From NCBI GenBank assembly GCA_965205425.1, contig CBDBGZ010000009.1, positions 288,001-352,000 on the forward strand: a DNA stretch of 64,000 nucleotides. The letters run 5' to 3'. This document shows positions 5,425 to 13,332 of the stretch, piece after piece; within the stretch, counting starts at the first letter, position 1, and every line of letters begins with the position of its first letter. Origin of the DNA: Nitrosopumilus sp. GTDB lineage: Archaea > Thermoproteota > Nitrososphaeria > Nitrososphaerales > Nitrosopumilaceae. A program made the translations under genes and the position numbers. The notes beneath the pieces were generated by a model, which worked only from the letters and a program-made list of their open reading frames with translations, did no database searches and had not been told where the DNA came from.

Positions 5425-6270
5425 TTATTTTTCCACAGGATTTCCGATCATGTTTCCCCATTCAGTCCATGAACCATCATAGTTTCGGACCTTTGGATAT
5501 CCAAGTAGATATTTCAAAACAAACCAACTGTGTGAAGAACGTTCTCCAATTCTACAATAACAAATTACATCTTTGTCTGGAGTGACACCATTTGGTTCAT
5601 AGTTTTGTCTTAATTCCTCAACTGCTTTGAACGTACCATCAGCATCATTTACTGCAGTTGCCCATGGAATGTTATTTGCATCTGGAATGTGACCTCCTCT
5701 TTGTGCATGTTCCATCGGATATTCAGGAGGTGCAGTGATTTGACCAGTAAATTCTGCAGGAGATCTTACATCAACCATTACTGTATCTTCTTTTCCTAAT
5801 GCTCGGCTAACATCAAATAGATATGCACGTAAACCCTCATCTGGAGGTTGTGCAACATAATTTGTTTGTGCTAGTTGAGGTTCATCAGTTGTGTAATCTT
5901 TACTTTCTAATTCCCATTTTTTTCTTCCACCATTCATTATCTTTAGATTTTCATGACCGTAAATTTTGAAAACCCAGAAAACAAAAGCTGCAAACCAATT
6001 GTTAAAGTCACCATAAAGAATTACTTCAGTATCTGCAGTAATTCCATTTTTTGCCATTAATGCTTCAAATTCTTTTTTGCTAATGATATCTCTTGTAACA
6101 GGATCATTAATGTCTCGTTTCCACCAGATTAAACTAGCACCATTAATGTGACCTTTTTGATATCCATTTACAGGATCATAATCAACTTCAACTAATTTTC
6201 TATTTTCATTAGGAGGATTTTGTGATACCCATTCGGTATCTACTAAAACTTCAGGATGTGCGTAACTCAT
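5425..6270 (-). CDS. Thiosulfate sulfurtransferase (two-domain rhodanese)
   Basis: GHIPDA, active-site YCRIGERS and YDGSWTEW signature. Confidence 0.93.
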   Translation of the reverse strand: MSYAHPEVLVDTEWVSQNPPNENRKLVEVDYDPVNGYQKGHINGASLIWWKRDINDPVTRDIISKKEFEALMAKNGITADTEVILYGDFNNWFAAFVFWVFKIYGHENLKIMNGGRKKWELESKDYTTDEPQLAQTNYVAQPPDEGLRAYLFDVSRALGKEDTVMVDVRSPAEFTGQITAPPEYPMEHAQRGGHIPDANNIPWATAVNDADGTFKAVEELRQNYEPNGVTPDKDVICYCRIGERSSHSWFVLKYLLGYPKVRNYDGSWTEWGNMIGNPVEK

Positions 6271-6315
6271 ATTTTTTACGGATTTGTTTTCATACTTATT
6301 TGTTTTTCCAATAAA

Positions 6316-6389
6316 GGTTCTGTTAAGTAATCAAGACCTCAACTATGGATCTTCTTCGTGTTAAGTGTCGAGACCTGAGGCTAAATTAT
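6316..6389 (+). repeat. Left terminal inverted repeat (74 bp)
   Basis: Exact reverse complement of 11906-11979. Confidence 0.97.
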
Positions 6390-6409
6390 AATTACCTGAA
6401 TGATGTAAT

Positions 6410-6646
6410 TTGAGTATGGAAAGATTTGAACAATGTAAATTTGCAGTATATTTTGACGTTCCAAATCCTCATGTGATCATACACAAAATTGGCAAACATA
6501 AGTTGGAAATTCATGGAGGTGATCATATTGTAGAAGTTGTTAGTGGTTGGGGTTATTTTGTAGAAGAACATGAAGCCAAATCTTTTGCAGAAGGAATCAG
6601 CAAAACAAGAAAAATATCCTTATCTCATTGTAAAAAATGCTATTAA
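6410..6646 (+). CDS. Small hypothetical cargo protein (His-rich, C-terminal CxxC)
   Basis: 78-aa ORF between the left TIR and the transposase stop. Confidence 0.65.
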   Translation: MSMERFEQCKFAVYFDVPNPHVIIHKIGKHKLEIHGGDHIVEVVSGWGYFVEEHEAKSFAEGISKTRKISLSHCKKCY

Positions 6647-6649
6647 ATT

Positions 6650-7756
6650 CTAAATTTTACTGGCATTTTGAATCAATGTAATCCATTTGTTATTTCCAGT
6701 TACTTTAATTCCCACCCTATCTGCGGGTGTATCCCCGTCTAAACTCATGTGTTCTCTAATGTAGTTATGGTAGAGTTGAATGCCTGTAATGGCTGATGAA
6801 TCATCTTTTTTCAATCCTCTAAATGTTTTCTCTCTATCTCTAAATTCTCCATTTAATCTTTCTTGAATATTGTTGTTGGCTACTTGGTTTCTAATATGAA
6901 TTTCCTTGATGTGTTTTGCTCTCGGATTCTTTAGTGTCCAAAATTCCTTCTTGAAAGCATCATTATAAGCTGGTAATCCGTCAGTGACAAATGTTTTAGG
7001 TATCTTTCCAGTTTTTTCTTTTCCCATCTTTAACAAGGTTCTCGCATCATGCTTGAATTTACTATTTGCCACTTCTTGAGCAATCCAAAATCTAGTGTCA
7101 TTGTCCATCATTGCAAAGAGATACTTTCTATCACCATTGATTTTTAGCCATACTTCATCTGCATGCCATTTATCGCCTACTTTTGGTGTGATGGTTTGTA
7201 GATAACTATCCATAAGTTTGATGTATTTGTTAACCCATTCATAGATAGCAACGTGTGAGAAATTAATTCCTTGTAGTTTGATAAATTTCTGAACGCCACG
7301 TAAAGATTCACCTGTAAAGTACAACTGCATTGCACTTGTGATAATCTGAGGGGTGGCATGCATTCCTTCAAACCCTAGATTGATTGAGAATTTTCTATCA
7401 CAATCCTTGCACAAATAAATCTGAATTTCCTGATTCTTGTTTTTACGTAATCCTTTCTTGATGATTTTTTGGGATTCACAGTATTTGCAACAATTACTTT
7501 CTACGGGATTTAGTGTAACGTGATTTTTAACTTCCTTTCTAATGGATAATGAGATTTCAACGCTGTGAATATGTTTACAGCAGGTTTTTCTAAAGTTATG
7601 ATCCTCGCATGAACAAGACCAGCCAAATTCAGTAGAGATAATGTCATGTTGTATCTTTCTTGATTGAGAATTAACCTTGTAATGATTTTCATCAACTCTT
7701 GTAATTTGATCTTGTTTCTTGGCTATTTCTTTACCTTTAATTTCCCTCACATTCAT
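6650..7756 (-). CDS. IS6-family-like DDE transposase with N-terminal SWIM zinc finger and Zn ribbon
   Basis: CSCEDH..CKH (SWIM), CKYC...CKDC, HTH-like region, then WHADE / VTDG / NNIQERLN catalytic motifs. Confidence 0.9.
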   Translation of the reverse strand: MNVREIKGKEIAKKQDQITRVDENHYKVNSQSRKIQHDIISTEFGWSCSCEDHNFRKTCCKHIHSVEISLSIRKEVKNHVTLNPVESNCCKYCESQKIIKKGLRKNKNQEIQIYLCKDCDRKFSINLGFEGMHATPQIITSAMQLYFTGESLRGVQKFIKLQGINFSHVAIYEWVNKYIKLMDSYLQTITPKVGDKWHADEVWLKINGDRKYLFAMMDNDTRFWIAQEVANSKFKHDARTLLKMGKEKTGKIPKTFVTDGLPAYNDAFKKEFWTLKNPRAKHIKEIHIRNQVANNNIQERLNGEFRDREKTFRGLKKDDSSAITGIQLYHNYIREHMSLDGDTPADRVGIKVTGNNKWITLIQNASKI

Positions 7757-7764
7757 GTAATTAT

Positions 7765-7821
7765 AATAACAGTACTGTTATTTATGCCTGTTGTTAACCG
7801 TCTGTTTTTAACAGATCGGTT
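7765..7821. promoter_or_regulatory. Two palindromes in the divergent transposase/regulator promoter
   Basis: Perfect 18-bp AATAACAGTACTGTTATT (7765-7782); near-perfect AACCGTCTGTT-ttt-AACAGATCGGTT (7796-7821). Confidence 0.7.
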
Positions 7822-7848
7822 TAAATACAATTAAAATTTTACAACATC

Positions 7849-8043
7849 ATGACAAGATGGGCAAGAGATGCAAAAGAATTCGATGTAAGTTTAACAAAAA
7901 GTAAGAACAAAGGAACAACAGAAAGTGTGATTTGTAGAGTTCCAGTTCCTATTTTTGAAAAGTTAGGAAAACCAAAACGATTAAATTTTAAAATTCAGGG
8001 TAAAAAAATAATTGTTGAAGGATTAAACAAGAATGGAAAATAG
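7849..8043 (+). CDS. AbrB/MazE-like swapped-hairpin DNA-binding protein
   Basis: 64 aa; CRVPVPIFEKLG..KRLNFKIQGKKIIVE matches the AbrB-type pattern. Confidence 0.7.
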   Translation: MTRWARDAKEFDVSLTKSKNKGTTESVICRVPVPIFEKLGKPKRLNFKIQGKKIIVEGLNKNGK

Positions 8044-8875
8044 TCAAACTGTTCAACATGATGCAGTTATTGTAGAAGGCAGTGATTTTGAACGACTAAA
8101 AAATAACGTAGATCATTTGATACATTTGGGTGATTGTATTAATGTTTTAGATAAGATCGATGACAAATCATGTCGTTTGATTTTTGCAGATCCGCCATAT
8201 AACATGGGAAAGAATTTTGGAAATAATAATGACAAATGGGAATCGGGAGCAGATTATGCGGATTGGTGTGTAAAATGGATTAAAAAATGCATTGACAAGC
8301 TAACTGATGATGGCTCAATAATGATTATGGGGCATCCGAGATATGCATCATATCTAATACCTTATCTTGATAAAAAACTCCATTATGTTAATCAAATTAT
8401 TTATTATTACACTGACGGGATGCCCGAAAAAAAGAATTTTGAGAAAAGATATGAGGTGATAATGTATTATCGTAAAGATAAAAACAATTTTGTATTCAAT
8501 GTAGATGATGTCAGAGTTCCATTAAAAAGATATGATAAAACAAGTAATCCTAACGGAAAGAATCCAAATGACGTATGGCAAATTCATCGTGTAAGATGGA
8601 ATTCAAAAGAAAGAGTAAACACAAATGATGGAAAAATAGCTCATTTGGCACAAAAGCCAATTCGGCTACTAAGAAGAATCATACTTGCAACTACAAACAA
8701 AGAGGATTTAATTTTAGACCCCTTTTTAGGAACAGGAACAACCATGACTGCATCAAAAGAACTTTCACGAAAATCAATAGGAATTGAGATAAATCCAGAA
8801 TATGCCAATATTGCATTAAACAGATTGCAACATACAAAGAAGAAAACAGAAGGAGTTCCTTATGAAGAAAGATAG
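8033..8875 (+). CDS. DNA amino-methyltransferase (N6-A/N4-C), beta-class motif order
   Basis: Catalytic DPPY precedes SAM-binding DPFLGTGTT; HLAQKP motif. Confidence 0.92.
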   Translation: MENSQTVQHDAVIVEGSDFERLKNNVDHLIHLGDCINVLDKIDDKSCRLIFADPPYNMGKNFGNNNDKWESGADYADWCVKWIKKCIDKLTDDGSIMIMGHPRYASYLIPYLDKKLHYVNQIIYYYTDGMPEKKNFEKRYEVIMYYRKDKNNFVFNVDDVRVPLKRYDKTSNPNGKNPNDVWQIHRVRWNSKERVNTNDGKIAHLAQKPIRLLRRIILATTNKEDLILDPFLGTGTTMTASKELSRKSIGIEINPEYANIALNRLQHTKKKTEGVPYEER

Positions 8876-10007
8876 TCTAGTACTAAAGTTAAAAAATCCT
8901 ATAAACAAGTATGATTCAAAACAATTCAATAAAAATCATGAATGGTTCATTCCCAGAGATAGAGTTAACTTTTACCTAACCCACGACTTTCATCCATATT
9001 TTGCTGCTTTTCCGCCCCAACTTGTTGCACGTCTTTTACATTATCATTCAAAGAAAGGGGATGTGTTTTTGGATCCTTTCATGGGTGGTGGATCTTCAAT
9101 GGTTGAGGGAGTGGTAAATGACAGAAAAACCATCGGAAATGACATTAGTCCATTCTCAAAGTTCATTTGTAGTGTAAAATCTACTCCGATTAAGATTAAA
9201 GATGATGAATTGCTCTTCTTACAATCAAATATCAAAAGATCACTTTCAAACAAAAAGAGAACAACAGATTTTGAAGATTATGATAGAATTACAAATGTGA
9301 AATATTGGTTTGATTCCAAAAATCTAACCGAACTTGATTCTATATATCGATGTGTTAAGAAAATTAAAAACAAGAAATTTCAGAATTTTGCACTACTTGC
9401 ATTTTCTAGCATATTGAGAAAATCTTCAAATGCAAAAAATGCAGAACAGCATTTATGTCTCAAACAAAATAAAAAACTCCCTTCTCCTACAAATCTTTTT
9501 GAGAAAAAAATGAACCTAATGGCTGAACAGATGAAAATATTTTACAAAAATTATCATACACATAACAAAACAACACTGCATACTGGAGATGTCCGGAATC
9601 TATCTGATAAAATTAATGAAAACAGTGTAGATATTGTTATCACATCACCTCCTTATGGAACTGGCTCAAAATATACAAACATTTACCGATTAAATTATGA
9701 GTGGCTAGGACTAGAAAAACCACAAAATAAAGATCCTCTTGAAACAACAAACGATTTTAGAGGCGAATTAAAAAAATCTCTTGAGCAGATACACAATGTT
9801 TTAAAACCCAATAAATTTTGTTTTTTTGTCTATGGGGATCCATCAACATCTAACGGATTGACAAAATATGCCATTACGGATGCAGAGTCGATGGGCTTTA
9901 AGTTTAGAGGAACCATCTCATGTCCAATAAAAAAGACCATTGCAAAACATTCAGAAAAATATACTCAATTCATACCAAAAGACTTTATCATTATTTTGCA
10001 AAAATAG
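8862..10007 (+). CDS. DNA amino-methyltransferase, probably N4-cytosine, alpha-class motif order
   Basis: FHPYFAAFPP and DPFMGGGS (motif I) precede TSPPY (motif IV). Confidence 0.9.
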   Translation: MKKDSLVLKLKNPINKYDSKQFNKNHEWFIPRDRVNFYLTHDFHPYFAAFPPQLVARLLHYHSKKGDVFLDPFMGGGSSMVEGVVNDRKTIGNDISPFSKFICSVKSTPIKIKDDELLFLQSNIKRSLSNKKRTTDFEDYDRITNVKYWFDSKNLTELDSIYRCVKKIKNKKFQNFALLAFSSILRKSSNAKNAEQHLCLKQNKKLPSPTNLFEKKMNLMAEQMKIFYKNYHTHNKTTLHTGDVRNLSDKINENSVDIVITSPPYGTGSKYTNIYRLNYEWLGLEKPQNKDPLETTNDFRGELKKSLEQIHNVLKPNKFCFFVYGDPSTSNGLTKYAITDAESMGFKFRGTISCPIKKTIAKHSEKYTQFIPKDFIIILQK

Positions 10008-11535
10008 TGTTAACATCCGATTTTGCTATGATCTTGTTTAGCTTTAAAATTTCTATTACTTTGTCTTTTTTCCCTCCTGATTCTGAATATTTTTCTGTTA
10101 GAAAGTTCAATGTGTCATGATCAATAAGAGATATGATGTGATGACAATTATCTTCATGTATGATGATGTCAGATCCAAATTTATCAGATACAATTAATTG
10201 ACCTAATGCTTTGATTTGCAGTACTTTCTTTGTATGCCTGTAGAATTTGGTCGTACCATCACTTTCTCTTTTTTGAGTGTCGTCTATTCTTTTTTGCCCT
10301 GAATAAATTCCAAGTGTGGTCTCCATCAGAAGTTTTTCCTTTGTGTTATCTCGGAGATATGAAAGCAAATCTTCAGGAGCATAATCAAGACCAGACAAGT
10401 CTATTACTGCATCAGGTCTATCTGATTTACCACCTAAATGAAATGCCATTAATCCAATCTTTCTAAATTTCTCACATAGATTAATTTCCCATATACGATC
10501 ATCGTTTCCAATGTTTATTGATGGGAAATAGAGTTGTTTCTTTTGATTGTTAAAAGATATTTCCAATAATCCACAAAATATAGTAGAGAAACTATCTGAT
10601 CTTCCATAACTGTTTGAGGTCAAAGTGATCTGTACTTTCTTTTTATTATGTGGTGCAAGTGTGAATGACTTTTCTGAGTCTATTTTTATTTCTGAGGTAT
10701 TCTCAAAAACACTTGAAAGTTTTCCGTTTATTTCAAGAGACAAATCTTTGGCAGTTTTGTTGATAAATTCAAAGAAAAAATCATATCTTCTACCCTTGTT
10801 AAAATCACTAAATCCAAGAAAAGCATTTTGTGGTATTACCTCTAACTCATCACATGTGACTTGAGTTTCAATTCCTGAAAATATCTCATCAAGGCTTTTT
10901 TTCTTTTTTAGAAATTTTTTGAAACTCTCATTTACTGTAAAATATCTCAAACTTGATCTGTAAATCAAACCGCAAGGCTCAAGCCATCCAAATTTTATTG
11001 CCTTCCCTGCATGTTGCTCAACATAAATTACATGCTTTTTTGTGATTTTAGATGTGGCTTCATCATTAATGGGTATTTTTTTCTCAATGTCATATAGTTT
11101 AAAGAGTTTAGAGCATTGAGGATAATTTCCATCATCAACAGCTTTTAAGATACACCATGCAACATAATACGGAAACTGTTTCTTTTCTTGAGTTAAAACA
11201 AATTTTCCGAGTTTTGATAAACAAAATTTTAATTTTTTTGCCAATCTCCATGTCGTTTGTCCTAAATCAATTATATTATTAGTTTCATTATCTAAACGAT
11301 CAACTAATCCAAGTCTCCATAATTCTTTAAGATATGATCTGCATGTTTCTTTTGGTGCCTTATGTTTTGGGTCATCCCACCAAGCAAATTTTTTGTTGAG
11401 TTCTACCATTAGAGTTGTAATGTCAGTTGTTCCTAAATTTTGGATTGTGCATAATGTTTCATAATGTTGAGATAACCCCATTCCTTTTCCTACGGACATT
11501 TGATCGCTTGGTGTCCTACTTCCACCTTTTGTCAT
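9991..11535 (-). CDS. Putative restriction endonuclease with C-terminal PD-(D/E)XK, FokI-like cleavage domain
   Basis: WEINLCEKF...HLGGKSDRPDAVID...LLMETT segment; convergent with two methyltransferase genes. Confidence 0.65.
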   Translation of the reverse strand: MTKGGSRTPSDQMSVGKGMGLSQHYETLCTIQNLGTTDITTLMVELNKKFAWWDDPKHKAPKETCRSYLKELWRLGLVDRLDNETNNIIDLGQTTWRLAKKLKFCLSKLGKFVLTQEKKQFPYYVAWCILKAVDDGNYPQCSKLFKLYDIEKKIPINDEATSKITKKHVIYVEQHAGKAIKFGWLEPCGLIYRSSLRYFTVNESFKKFLKKKKSLDEIFSGIETQVTCDELEVIPQNAFLGFSDFNKGRRYDFFFEFINKTAKDLSLEINGKLSSVFENTSEIKIDSEKSFTLAPHNKKKVQITLTSNSYGRSDSFSTIFCGLLEISFNNQKKQLYFPSINIGNDDRIWEINLCEKFRKIGLMAFHLGGKSDRPDAVIDLSGLDYAPEDLLSYLRDNTKEKLLMETTLGIYSGQKRIDDTQKRESDGTTKFYRHTKKVLQIKALGQLIVSDKFGSDIIIHEDNCHHIISLIDHDTLNFLTEKYSESGGKKDKVIEILKLNKIIAKSDVNTIFAK

Positions 11536-11572
11536 GATATTATAATGATAAATCCAGTACGATTAAACAGTT

Positions 11573-11899
11573 ATGGGTAAAATCAATTTTATTATACCAA
11601 ATAAAAGCATGAACCGTATGAGTAATGTAATTTTTAAGAAGAAGATTAACAAAAGTGAGAAAAAATTCAGTTTCATACACGTACCACATCAGTATCGGAA
11701 AGATCTTGGTAATTCTTTAGAGATCATGGCAGATGGTAAAATATTCACAGTGAAAATAAACACAGTGGGCAGATTGATATCTAGTAAACTCTTCAAACAT
11801 CTTGACCCAAAAATTGATGATAGCATAATTCTAGAAAAAGATGCAGAGGGACGATATACAATCACAGTACAACCCTCTCATATGCGAGTTAAATTTTAA
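11573..11899 (+). CDS. Small protein resembling a B3/EcoRII-N DNA-binding pseudobarrel
   Basis: Pattern FKKKINKSE..FIHVP...GRL...LF....KIDDSIILEK...YTITV; start may be a later Met (MSNVIF). Confidence 0.55.
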   Translation: MGKINFIIPNKSMNRMSNVIFKKKINKSEKKFSFIHVPHQYRKDLGNSLEIMADGKIFTVKINTVGRLISSKLFKHLDPKIDDSIILEKDAEGRYTITVQPSHMRVKF

Positions 11900-11905
11900 A
11901 TTAAA

Positions 11906-11979
11906 ATAATTTAGCCTCAGGTCTCGACACTTAACACGAAGAAGATCCATAGTTGAGGTCTTGATTACTTAACAGAACC
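11906..11979 (-). repeat. Right terminal inverted repeat (74 bp)
   Basis: Exact reverse complement of 6316-6389; followed by TSD CCAATAAA. Confidence 0.97.
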
Positions 11980-12032
11980 CCAATAAACAGGAAAAATATC
12001 ATTTTTATGTAAATAGACTTCAGAAGAACTGC

Positions 12033-12848
12033 TTGAAATTACAAAAAGTGGCAGTAGTAAGCAAGGTAGGATCCAAGGATTCAGAGCAAGCTGCAAAAGA
12101 TGTTACAAAAAAACTCTTAGCAAAAAAATCTACTGTGTTTACCATATCCCCAATTGAAGTTGAAGGGGCAAAACAAATTGAAACTTTGGAAGAATTAAAG
12201 AAAGAAAAACTAGACCTAGTAATTACACTTGGTGGAGATGGAACCACGCTTAGAGTTTTTAGAAATTTAGAAAATGAAACACCGATTTTAACTATCAATG
12301 TAGGAGGGAACAGAGGAATTTTAGCAGAAATTACAATTGAAGAAATTGATGAAGCAATAGATCAAATTTTAAAAGATAATTTCTTTTTGGATAAAAGAAC
12401 CAGAGTGATTGCATCATGTGGTGGAAAAGAATTCCCACCAGCATTAAATGAAATTTACATTACAAGAACAAATTTGACTAAAACTGCAGAAATTAAAATT
12501 AAATTTCAAGACGATACGGTAAAACAAAAAATGGATGGCGTCATTATTGCAACTCCAAGTGGTTCTACAGGTCATTCATTTTCATTAGGGGGTCCAATTT
12601 TGCATGAAAGTTTAGATGTCTTAATTATAACGCCAGTAGCACCAGTTTACAGATTAGCATCATTAATTGTTCCAGATGAGCAAATTGAAATCGCGTGTTC
12701 GCATGATTGTAACATTGCAATGGATGCACAAGTTGTAAAAACAGTAGGATATGAAGAACCAATTACTATTAAAAAATACAAAAAACCCGCAGTTTTCCTT
12801 AGATTAAAAAAACGAGGACTGAGACAGATGAGCAAACTTGGATTTTAG
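12033..12848 (+). CDS. nadK: NAD(+) kinase
   Basis: GGDGT, ALNE and DGVIIATPSGSTGHSFSLGGP motifs. Confidence 0.93.
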   Translation: MKLQKVAVVSKVGSKDSEQAAKDVTKKLLAKKSTVFTISPIEVEGAKQIETLEELKKEKLDLVITLGGDGTTLRVFRNLENETPILTINVGGNRGILAEITIEEIDEAIDQILKDNFFLDKRTRVIASCGGKEFPPALNEIYITRTNLTKTAEIKIKFQDDTVKQKMDGVIIATPSGSTGHSFSLGGPILHESLDVLIITPVAPVYRLASLIVPDEQIEIACSHDCNIAMDAQVVKTVGYEEPITIKKYKKPAVFLRLKKRGLRQMSKLGF

Positions 12849-13332
12849 AATACTAGACGCTAGTGCATTTTATGCAGGAGTGCCATTTAGATCATCTGAT
12901 GATTGTTACACCACATCATTGGTTTATGATGAAATTAAACACATAAAGAAAAATCATGATGCATTAGGAACTTTACTTGAGACAAACAGGTTAAAAATTA
13001 GAGAACCCGATTCAGAATCAACAAAAAGTGCAATCAAAGCATCAAAAGATACAGGAGATTTCCCACAATTATCAAAACAAGATATCTCAATTATTGCCTT
13101 AGCTATAGAGATGAAGGGTGAAATAATTAGTGATGATTTTGCAATTTCAAACGTAGCCAAAAATTTGGATTTAAAAATTCTGCCCATTATGACCAAAGGA
13201 ATTGCAGATGTGGGTAAATGGATTCATTATTGTCCTGGATGTAGAACTAATCATACAACGGGAAAAGAATGCCCAATGTGTGGAACACCTCTAAAAAGAA
13301 AATTACTAAAAGAGAAGTCAGTGTCTATTTAA
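12838..13332 (+). CDS. nob1: Nob1-like PIN endonuclease with Zn ribbon
   Basis: ILDASAF, LSKQD, SDDFAI; CPGC...CPMCG. Confidence 0.88.
   Translation: MDFRILDASAFYAGVPFRSSDDCYTTSLVYDEIKHIKKNHDALGTLLETNRLKIREPDSESTKSAIKASKDTGDFPQLSKQDISIIALAIEMKGEIISDDFAISNVAKNLDLKILPIMTKGIADVGKWIHYCPGCRTNHTTGKECPMCGTPLKRKLLKEKSVSI

Follow-up and report, generated by a model that had tools for sequence, protein, structure and literature searches.

Elements of the IS6/IS26 family, such as IS26, IS257 and IS1216, combine a DDE_Tnp_IS240 catalytic core with GG..cTGTt tips and an 8-bp target site duplication (TSD), and have no resolvase. Their transposases have 213–254 aa, their ends 14–20 bp and the whole elements ∼0.8 kb, as given in parts of PMC7986276 and PMC6807381. 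The catalogued archaeal members, the ISH14, ISPfu1 and ISC774 groups, have 206–237 aa, 0.67–0.85 kb and terminal inverted repeats (TIRs) of 12–34 bp (Table 5, in the excerpt of PMC6807381 available). The mobile elements of thaumarchaea were surveyed in 2019 (PMC6563490): insertion sequences are treated there as one- or two-gene units, and passenger-carrying transposons are listed, in the portion available, as undetected in archaea. In Xanthomonas oryzae and Neisseria gonorrhoeae, restriction-modification (RM) genes are described between long inverted repeats, of 65 and 26 bp; an 8-bp TSD and an empty site are present as well. The transposase there is absent or a COG3677 remnant, and no archaeal transposon-like RM unit survived the survey in the available extract of PMC2853133.

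Some DDE elements have also been described that insert upstream of promoters, at a constant distance from them. According to sections of PMC3942029, TnGBS, ISLre2 and ISKra4 (p-MULT 3 and 4) use a Mutator-type transposase and insert 15–17 bp from a bacterial sigma-A −35 box, in both orientations when their inverted repeats are near-perfect; for the archaeal ISH6 the same sections describe a preference for AT-rich TSDs only. In eukaryotes the LTR retrotransposon Ty3 integrates harmlessly and with base precision at Pol III start sites through TFIIIB, a TBP-containing complex, and its contact with TBP has been shown (bioRxiv 10.1101/2021.07.27.453949, in part).

The window, the 64,000-nucleotide stretch of the marine ammonia-oxidising archaeon Nitrosopumilus sp. 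analysed here, contains a transposon of 5664 bp. Its left TIR (6316–6389, + strand), beginning GGTTCTGTT, is the exact reverse complement of the right TIR (11906–11979, − strand) over 74/74 nt; the runner-up inverted repeat within 5500–13000 is 31 nt at 71%. The TSD CCAATAAA directly abuts both outer ends (6308–6315 and 11980–11987, + strand), with the matching ends immediately inwards. Seven ORFs lie inside: the transposase gene (6650–7756, − strand) and six passengers of 78, 64, 280, 381, 514 and 108 aa that flank it on both sides. Searches of all seven in Pfam and NCBIfam gave no match to a resolvase or recombinase family.

The target is single-copy in relatives. Among the best 20 loci from a genus-wide DNA search, one was the window itself and two were transposase-only matches; the remaining 17/17 show an empty site in which the flanks join with an 8-bp overlap. 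The empty-allele joint (6307 to 11980) is also present in three of the four public sequencing runs examined. One of the runs, X6, holds a near-whole copy of the element, ∼92% identical and with other flanks, together with the empty allele at the present locus. The insertion, although undated, is plausibly recent. The sequence-only reading had proposed just this arrangement, with perfect repeats, an outer duplication, one transposase, six passengers, no resolvase and entry as one unit, and had pointed to the empty site in relatives as a check; all of it holds. With one transposase and its passengers moving as a unit between a single pair of inverted repeats, these 5664 bp form an autonomous unit transposon, and the wider proposal of a transporter-type IS6 derivative with defence cargo in an archaeon is supported. 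It belongs to a large archaeal SWIM-DDE family related to IS6.

The 368-aa transposase comprises a SWIM finger (∼aa 1–80), a Zn ribbon (∼90–124), an HTH and an IS6-like DDE domain, in which D200, D259 and E299 are invariant in the family alignment. Pfam DDE_Tnp_IS240 (PF13610) matches it at 52.8 bits (cut-off 27) and NF033587 at a borderline 124.3 and 126.5 bits (cut-off 125). The SWIM finger is detected in 25/26 family N-termini, weakly in the present copy. The match to IS256 covers 37 aa only (E 5e-4), and the enzyme is not of Mutator type. Among 27 longer proteins scanned from the top 150 SWIM matches, none carries the module on a non-IS6 catalytic core; apart from one GNAT fusion and an unrelated protein with repeats, they are fragments or have IS6-like cores. 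AlphaFold models the transposase poorly (pLDDT 61), and Foldseek returned nothing for the model at E 0.001 or better.

The IS6-like label given to this enzyme from sequence stands for the DDE_Tnp_IS240 core, but the N-terminal SWIM finger and Zn ribbon and a separate branch in the tree set it apart from an ordinary IS6 enzyme. In the broad ISfinder sense the element shares with IS6 the DDE domain, the GG tips with their cTGTt motif and the 8-bp TSD, but not the short (15–20 bp) repeats or a transposase gene that fills the element. In the sense of Harmer and Hall it lies outside IS6/IS26, with ERLNGEFRDREK in place of the E-DH---K signature and a length of 368 aa. Its end matches nine bases of the 14-bp IS26 end GGTTCTGTTGCAAA and then diverges. 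The family as a whole differs from IS6/IS26 in its long SWIM-bearing transposase, in ends of ∼50 bp (74 here), in its cargo and in its promoter-anchored target. The closest catalogued matches, 31–34% over aa 126–358, are to the ISCpe7 group of long clostridial IS6-like elements, which share the N-terminal Zn ribbon and 8-bp TSD; the SWIM profile does not match ISCpe7. In a quick tree the sampled family (46 rows; the row L302_own, in the wrong frame, was disregarded) forms a branch distinct from the six bacterial references taken from the catalogue (SH-aLRT 97). The ISCpe7 group and ISDsp3 are 1.2–1.8 kb long, with TIRs of 15–36 bp, and carry either no passenger or a single hypothetical one; ISDsp3, which alone among catalogued IS6 elements has a passenger, is set apart here by description. 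The element also lies outside the size ranges of the ISH14, ISPfu1 and ISC774 groups, with which it was compared by published sizes only.

In total, 132 elements of the family were delimited, of 1.5–13.5 kb; just 3 are ≤1.8 kb, 122 carry passengers and 35 carry RM genes. Left–right identity extends to ∼50 bp, and 115/143 end calls have GG/GG tips. The motif-free end caller gave 4/100 false calls on controls (inverted IS copies), so the 11/143 calls without family-type tips were removed. Of 150 distinct transposase copies, 76 lie within TIRs and an exact 8-bp TSD, against 1/150 random anchors, and that sole positive proved to be a true sibling element. A further 26/150 have TIRs without a TSD, from which we conclude that rearrangement or replicative pathways also operate; such copies are compatible with replicative cointegrate formation but no proof of it. 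Whole cargo elements of 4026 and 2825 bp are duplicated at 100% identity within one genome. Cargo and unusually long ends, read from sequence as peculiarities of this copy, are indeed present but are the norm in the family. A homologue occurs in 64/151 genomes of the genus, and in ammonia-oxidising archaea and Bathyarchaeia this family commonly carries RM genes and other defence genes. One member could appear in Supplemental Table S1 of PMC11529989. In the literature covered, with most subscription journals and ISfinder outside its scope, neither the family nor archaeal insertion in register with a TATA box was found described.

Insertions of the family share a register, in which the TSD is followed after 5 bp by a TATA-like box, on one side, and the promoter is directed outwards from the element. 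Among loci that were picked by similarity to the present transposase and are related to one another, WTWWAW begins 12 bp away from the TSD at 21/48 discovery loci and 19/41 held-out independent loci; promoter-proximal controls have it at the register in 27/862 cases (p=5e-16 against the held-out set). The peak is one base wide, with 40/89 at offset 12, 9–12 at offsets 10, 11, 13 and 14, and 0–5 elsewhere; at 35/90 family loci there is no good box in precisely this register. Positions of the BRE, which were not those used for orienting the loci, show a purine at −6 in 49/53, A at −4 in 40/53 and A at −3 in 46/53 on the box side, compared with 23, 16 and 14 on the mirror side. The same three positions match in 92/75/87% of targets and in 55/49/41% of 320 average host promoters. 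A different arrangement, in which the insertion would separate the TATA box from the start site and the box would be directed into it, failed a direction test (3/33 vs 7/33), and the reading of promoter orientation was therefore reversed. Where the box is strong, 17/42 loci have an ATG within 70 bp on the box side and 5/35 on the other side, in windows picked after inspection of the data, and more than half of these strong-box sites have no such ATG; over all loci, ATGs 33–41 bp out were not significantly in excess on the box side (9/77 vs 6/68).

Tandem stacks, in which orientation is fixed by the neighbouring element independently of the motif, have the box on their free side at 14/16 loci, against a background of 5.9%. 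The same base is reused across species, in hot spots of 22, 7 and 5 elements; the fixed register explains both these shared hot spots and the stacks. In 6/7 stacked pairs the TIRs are more perfect in the element nearer the promoter, which is suggestive of its being the younger.

At the present locus 37 bp separate the element from the sulfurtransferase ATG (6270) downstream of it. The TATA-like box of this gene, CAAATAAG (6295–6302, − strand), is 5 bp away from the edge of the TSD and precedes the ATG by 32 bp. It is a weak box, with 6/7 matches to WTWTAWR, and fails the strict pattern; the segment GAAAAACAAwTAAGTATG is invariant except at one position in 17/17 relatives. A BRE-like segment follows at 6303–6309 (− strand), by the contact positions in the consulted part of PMC2699501; its two upstream bases fall within the TSD, and the duplication restores them. 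The site is intergenic, as had been read, but that description was incomplete: the position is a fixed one, where the BRE/TATA promoter of the sulfurtransferase gene has its upstream edge. An unplanned check of the register came from runs X2 and X4, in which the same TIR occurs at a second site, ACGTATCA-TAATA-CTTATAAA, which is not in genome G000. Two siblings in the same genome are off register: in E2 a box-like run lies 2 bp farther outwards, and E3 is inserted in the relic end of another element.

We consider it very probable that the element is an autonomous unit transposon that chooses promoter-anchored targets, rebuilds the promoter and stacks. One transposase acts on the two long ends, mobilises all that lies between them and makes the 8-bp duplication, as comparative data show. 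Strand transfer would place the end of the duplicated 8-mer 5 bp upstream of the TATA-like box, overlapping the first BRE bases; such targeting is shown statistically for the family, and the present copy fits it. The TSD rebuilds the core promoter, and the host gene should therefore stay transcribed and the same target be regenerated. Later elements would then insert at the same point and give tandem stacks separated by one TSD; the stacks themselves are observed, and we infer that they arise by repeated insertion at the regenerated target. Like the p-MULT elements, the family lands a constant distance upstream of its target promoter and in both orientations, but the promoter is of a different type.

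For the choice of target, the most likely mechanism is that the transpososome docks on the TBP–TFB–promoter complex through its SWIM/Zn-ribbon N-terminus, a reading to which we would give about an even chance; a predicted complex of transposase aa 1–128 with the host TFB core and TBP scored 0.02, which speaks neither for nor against it. The broader picture, of a widespread family whose SWIM domain docks on the TBP–TFB preinitiation complex and whose insertions fall at the upstream BRE edge, may equally well prove right or wrong. If true, it would be a prokaryotic counterpart of Ty3–TFIIIB tethering, involving a DNA transposon upstream of the BRE and a contact that is inferred.

A possible though less likely alternative is that the transposase itself reads the DNA, one subunit's SWIM/Zn ribbon recognising an A/T-rich BRE-TATA-like sequence or shape without a host protein. 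Many target boxes have no ORF start nearby, as this would allow, and the stronger BRE match at targets than in average promoters is equally expected from it. Near-symmetric ends and a presumably dimeric enzyme should, however, produce a two-sided preference, yet the motif stands on both sides in 2/40 loci only, and the enriched positions −6, −4 and −3 are TFB-contact or conserved BRE positions in the consulted part of PMC2699501. Passive targeting, in which promoter DNA would serve best as substrate for being bent by TBP or free of chromatin and no specific contact is made, appears improbable. Bent targets are favoured by DDE enzymes, and the TATA box is kinked by TBP (PMC2699501, in part); but non-SWIM insertion sequences of four families in the same genome have 2/33 copies at the register, against 55/90 for the present family. 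Random insertion followed by selection for copies that spare promoters would account for the 48/51 discovery targets outside long ORFs, but any position further upstream should be tolerable, and the one-base peak and the reuse of the same base by different species make it very unlikely. It is scarcely credible that a normal IS merely happens to lie within an RM island here, or that the arrangement arose in assembly: the assembly does show a contig-end overlap (C8/C9) and 5.2% contamination, and among the contig pieces listed none bridges a filled junction with at least 31 bases on each side (one has 30), but the empty sites are clean, 132 sister elements share the architecture and the same gene set occurs between the same ends at other sites.

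Docking on TBP–TFB, if true, would make strong housekeeping promoters into polarised, growing stacks of defence-cargo cassettes, the newest adjoining the promoter. Landing upstream of the BRE/TATA gives the SWIM domain a testable function; it should keep the host gene working and let cassettes accumulate at the promoter, and the register offers an explanation for the nucleation of defence islands at fixed promoters. The base-precise insertions are a natural marker of archaeal core promoters and a possible safe-harbour integration tool for archaea.

The cargo probably forms a type IIS RM system, in keeping with the RM-like system that had been claimed from sequence. Two N6_N4_Mtase methyltransferases, of 280 aa (8033–8875, + strand; DPPY before the F-G-G motif, beta order) and 381 aa (8862–10007, + strand; F-G-G motif before SPPY, alpha order), adjoin a 514-aa probable type IIS-like restriction endonuclease (9991–11535, − strand). 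The latter has no sequence match in Pfam, PADLOC or PDB and was absent from 400 other genomes of the order searched; its assignment comes from 43 homologues, conservation and a structure model (pLDDT 91.6) with winged helix, Ig-like and PD-(D/E)xK-type domains. R373-P374-D375 and E405-T406 are invariant among the homologues. The best structural matches are FokI (Z 12.1, rmsd 8.7 over 209 aa) and N.BspD6I (Z 11.1), and for the nuclease domain alone AF1548 (Z 10.4, rmsd 2.7); Foldseek returned the Ig-like domains alone, and FokI_cleav_dom is weakly matched by 3/41 members of the nuclease family. FokI and BspD6I likewise pair two methyltransferases with a nuclease that has an N-terminal winged helix and a C-terminal PD-(D/E)xK domain, whereas the present nuclease has an inserted Ig-like domain and is known by its model, not by a sequence match. 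From what is known of such systems, the cargo would likely confer anti-virus defence and addiction-type stability.

Divergent from the nuclease gene is a 108-aa ORF (11573–11899, + strand), for which models (ESM Atlas scores 0.85–0.91) offer a B3/EcoRII-N-like DNA-binding fold as a lead. The 78-aa ORF (6410–6646, + strand) gave no significant match in Pfam, NCBIfam, PADLOC or PHROGs. Between the divergent genes for the transposase and the 64-aa protein, a palindrome AATAACAGTACTGTTATT with CTGTT..AACAG repeats (7765–7814) is a candidate operator; a variant of the element in public runs has one extra unit of this type inserted at 7801. The 64-aa protein (7849–8043, + strand) may be a regulator, putatively AbrB-like: it belongs to a recurrent cluster matching passengers of 13 other elements, a sister cluster matches MazE_antitoxin, and in 104/131 family elements the gene immediately upstream of the transposase is a small ORF.

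The 5664-bp element upstream of the sulfurtransferase gene (positions 6308–11987 of the window with its target-site copies) has the architecture proposed in the sequence-only reading. Its terminal inverted repeats (TIRs) are identical at 74 of 74 positions, the 8-bp target-site duplication (TSD) at its ends is CCAATAAA, and seven ORFs, the transposase and its passengers, lie inside. The expected empty site also exists: among the best 20 loci when the genus (151 genomes) was searched, all 17 relatives having both flanks carry them joined with a single 8-bp site, and the empty joint is present in contigs of three of four public sequencing runs. No piece bridging a filled junction with 31 bp on both sides was found among the read-contig pieces listed. 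Support for movement of element and cargo as one unit comes from identical duplicates of whole elements in another searched genome (G139) and from a ∼92% identical copy with other flanks in run X6. Siblings with different cargo are present in the source genome, G000, in which the window is C9:288001-352000. That the described structure is real is well supported.

The element belongs to a large archaeal family. Transposase homologues number 5129 at E 1e-20 or better; within the genus 64 of 151 genomes have one, and within the phylum 41 of 351. A discovery set comprised 150 distinct copies, of which 76 have TIRs with an exact 8-bp TSD, 26 have TIRs only and 48 have neither, many of the last on short contigs; one of 150 random control anchors was called by the same end calling, and this was a true sibling. 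The count for a second set of copies was 64 of 143. Removal of 11 calls without family-type tips left 132 elements, which occupy 91 independent target loci and are 1.5–13.5 kb long (median 3.3 kb), with a passenger of at least 100 aa in 122 and passengers on both sides in 92. Named hosts of the family include Nitrosopumilus, Nitrosotalea, Nitrosotenuis, Nitrosocosmicus, Bathyarchaeia and one Atabeyarchaeia genome, and complete elements lie in two of four tested viral-collection contigs. The matched TSDs of most delimited copies show that simple insertions are end products; the TSD-less copies are compatible with replicative routes as well.

The 368-aa transposase matches DDE_Tnp_IS240 and an IS1/IS1595 Zn ribbon, is borderline against NF033587 (124.3 and 126.5, cut-off 125), and a SWIM match is found in 25 of 26 family N-termini. 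The closest catalogued transposases, of the long clostridial ISCpe7 type, are 31–34% identical over the core and, like IS26 and IS1216, lack SWIM. The family sits on a separate branch in a quick tree whose six references are all bacterial, with no ISfinder entry from archaea. The element behaves as a transporter IS of the IS6 type, but falls outside the strict IS6/IS26 definition.

Insertion follows a fixed, one-sided register. Of the 51 discovery loci, 22 have a TATA-like hexamer that starts at a distance of exactly 12 bp from the TSD. The test was fixed on that set and applied to loci fetched later, of which 19 of 41 were positive, compared with 27 of 862 control sites near promoters (p=5e-16). 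The motif lies on both sides in only 2 of 40 loci. Four other IS families of G000 show the register in 2 of 33 cases, compared with 55 of 90 for this family. A first orientation of the box was rejected when it failed a direction test; in the outward direction the target consists of the TSD, then 5 bp, then YTTAWAWR. The window copy fits: 37 bp separate its TSD edge from the ATG of the sulfurtransferase gene, and a weak box lies 5 bp from that edge. This box is conserved in all 17 relatives, in contrast to the variable sequence immediately upstream. Once the rule had been fixed, a second site of the same ends came to light in runs X2 and X4; its sequence is ACGTATCA, TAATA, CTTATAAA. Against the rule, a good box at the register is missing in 35 of 90 loci, and two siblings in G000, E2 and E3, do not fit.

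The register is also seen where elements are stacked. Another family end lies exactly beyond the TSD in 33 of 131 elements (background 0.5%), and in stacks with one free side that side has the box at 14 of the 16 independent loci (13 if the first-listed element is used) against 5.9%, as expected if every insertion restores the target on the promoter side.

The target boxes are likely to be working promoters, and the host gene would stay expressed after insertion. Upstream of the box there is a purine at −6 in 49, an A at −4 in 40 and an A at −3 in 46 of 53 loci, compared with 23, 16 and 14 on the mirror side. The BRE consensus is cRNaANt. YTTAWA boxes of the G000 host peak 27–31 bp upstream of ATGs. 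PMC2699501 gives BRE contact or conserved positions at −37, −35, −34 and −32 from the start site. If the box starts at −31, these become −6, −4, −3 and −1 from the box. Over all loci the box-side excess of nearby ATGs is not significant (9/77 versus 6/68); at strong-box loci ATGs lie at 33–44 bp in 8/42 on the box side versus 1/35, and within 70 bp in 17/42 versus 5/35, both windows having been chosen afterwards. A radA hot spot holds 22 elements with the ATG at 36–39 bp, and ARAGORN places tRNAs behind three targets. From their translations, the genes behind targets presumably include radA, tfb, ribosomal protein genes and an S-layer-like gene.

These features could be read in three ways. In the first, to which we give an even chance, the transposase would dock on TBP–TFB through its SWIM/Zn N-terminus. 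Direct readout of the target DNA is a possible but weaker candidate, and passive bending an improbable one. The cargo of one family element includes a gene for a TATA-binding protein (L171:5538-6098), which is notable in view of the target rule.

Parts of the proposed behaviour have precedents: promoter-upstream insertion in the bacterial TnGBS, ISLre2 and ISKra4; tethering by a factor in Ty3; and RM units between long inverted repeats in two bacteria. Literature searches found no description of the family or the target rule. The terms promoter, TATA, SWIM and passenger do not occur in a 2026 archaeal IS survey (PMC13343696), and term look-ups and section 4 of PMC11529989 gave no description of the family.

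Both methyltransferases of the cargo are N6_N4_Mtase proteins, assigned to type II by PADLOC. The 514-aa protein gave no direct family match, but its 43 homologues keep an RPD...ET motif. Its confident model (pLDDT 91.6) resembles FokI (Z 12.1, rmsd 8.7) and N.BspD6I (Z 11.1), and residues 345–484 resemble the nuclease-fold protein AF1548 (Z 10.4, rmsd 2.7). Since this FokI/BspD6I-like protein accompanies two methyltransferases, the cargo reads as a putative type IIS-like RM system, which may provide defence or addiction. The nuclease (window 9991-11535) defines an unannotated 43-member family, one member labelled Bacteroidetes, with an Ig-like domain inserted between the winged-helix and nuclease domains. 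A 64-aa ORF, found again in 13 other elements, is probably a regulator acting on palindromes at 7765-7814.

The Pfam scan of the cargo covered 150 proteins, made up of 148 cluster representatives (of 190) and two proteins from E2, with results propagated over clusters. RM-type genes occur in 35 of the 132 elements, and a further 6 have defence-like genes of other kinds; most cargo clusters lack a Pfam match and are candidate defence genes. Proteasome-subunit-like cargo recurs, and KwaB-like, DprA/SLOG, GmrSD, NurA and PIN cargo is also seen (element loci L149, L088, L109, L238; L241; L204; L070).

G000 is very rich in IS, with 13 multi-copy families, and has several TBP and TFB paralogues. E2 (L302; G000:C9:353406-356463, just beyond the window) is 3058 bp long, with 67-bp perfect TIRs, a MunI-like nuclease and an MT-A70 methyltransferase. 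E3 (L303; G000:C9:576-6457, equal to C8:16221-22102) is 5882 bp long, with 67-bp TAC-starting ends, a divergent 449-aa SWIM transposase and cargo that we read as Mod/Res-like genes; its insertion point is inside the relic end of a family element of the GG type, not at a promoter. Its first 2120 bp are shared with C8:83985-91370, where the cargo differs. Reversed, C8:13221-22677 is identical to C9:1-9457, an assembly overlap or a duplication. A transposase-less family element (L304; G000:C9:961114-963201, 2088 bp, TSD CAAAAAAA), interrupted by another IS, sits at the radA-promoter hot spot with a box score of 7/7.

A palindrome, TACCGTA-N3-TACGGTA, overlaps the radA start region and is found again at further promoters, including two hot spots (promoter flanks of L040, L027 and L130; G000:C9:137112, 963229 and 1126684; C4:170840); it is a candidate operator for a regulon of the DNA-damage response in Nitrosopumilaceae.
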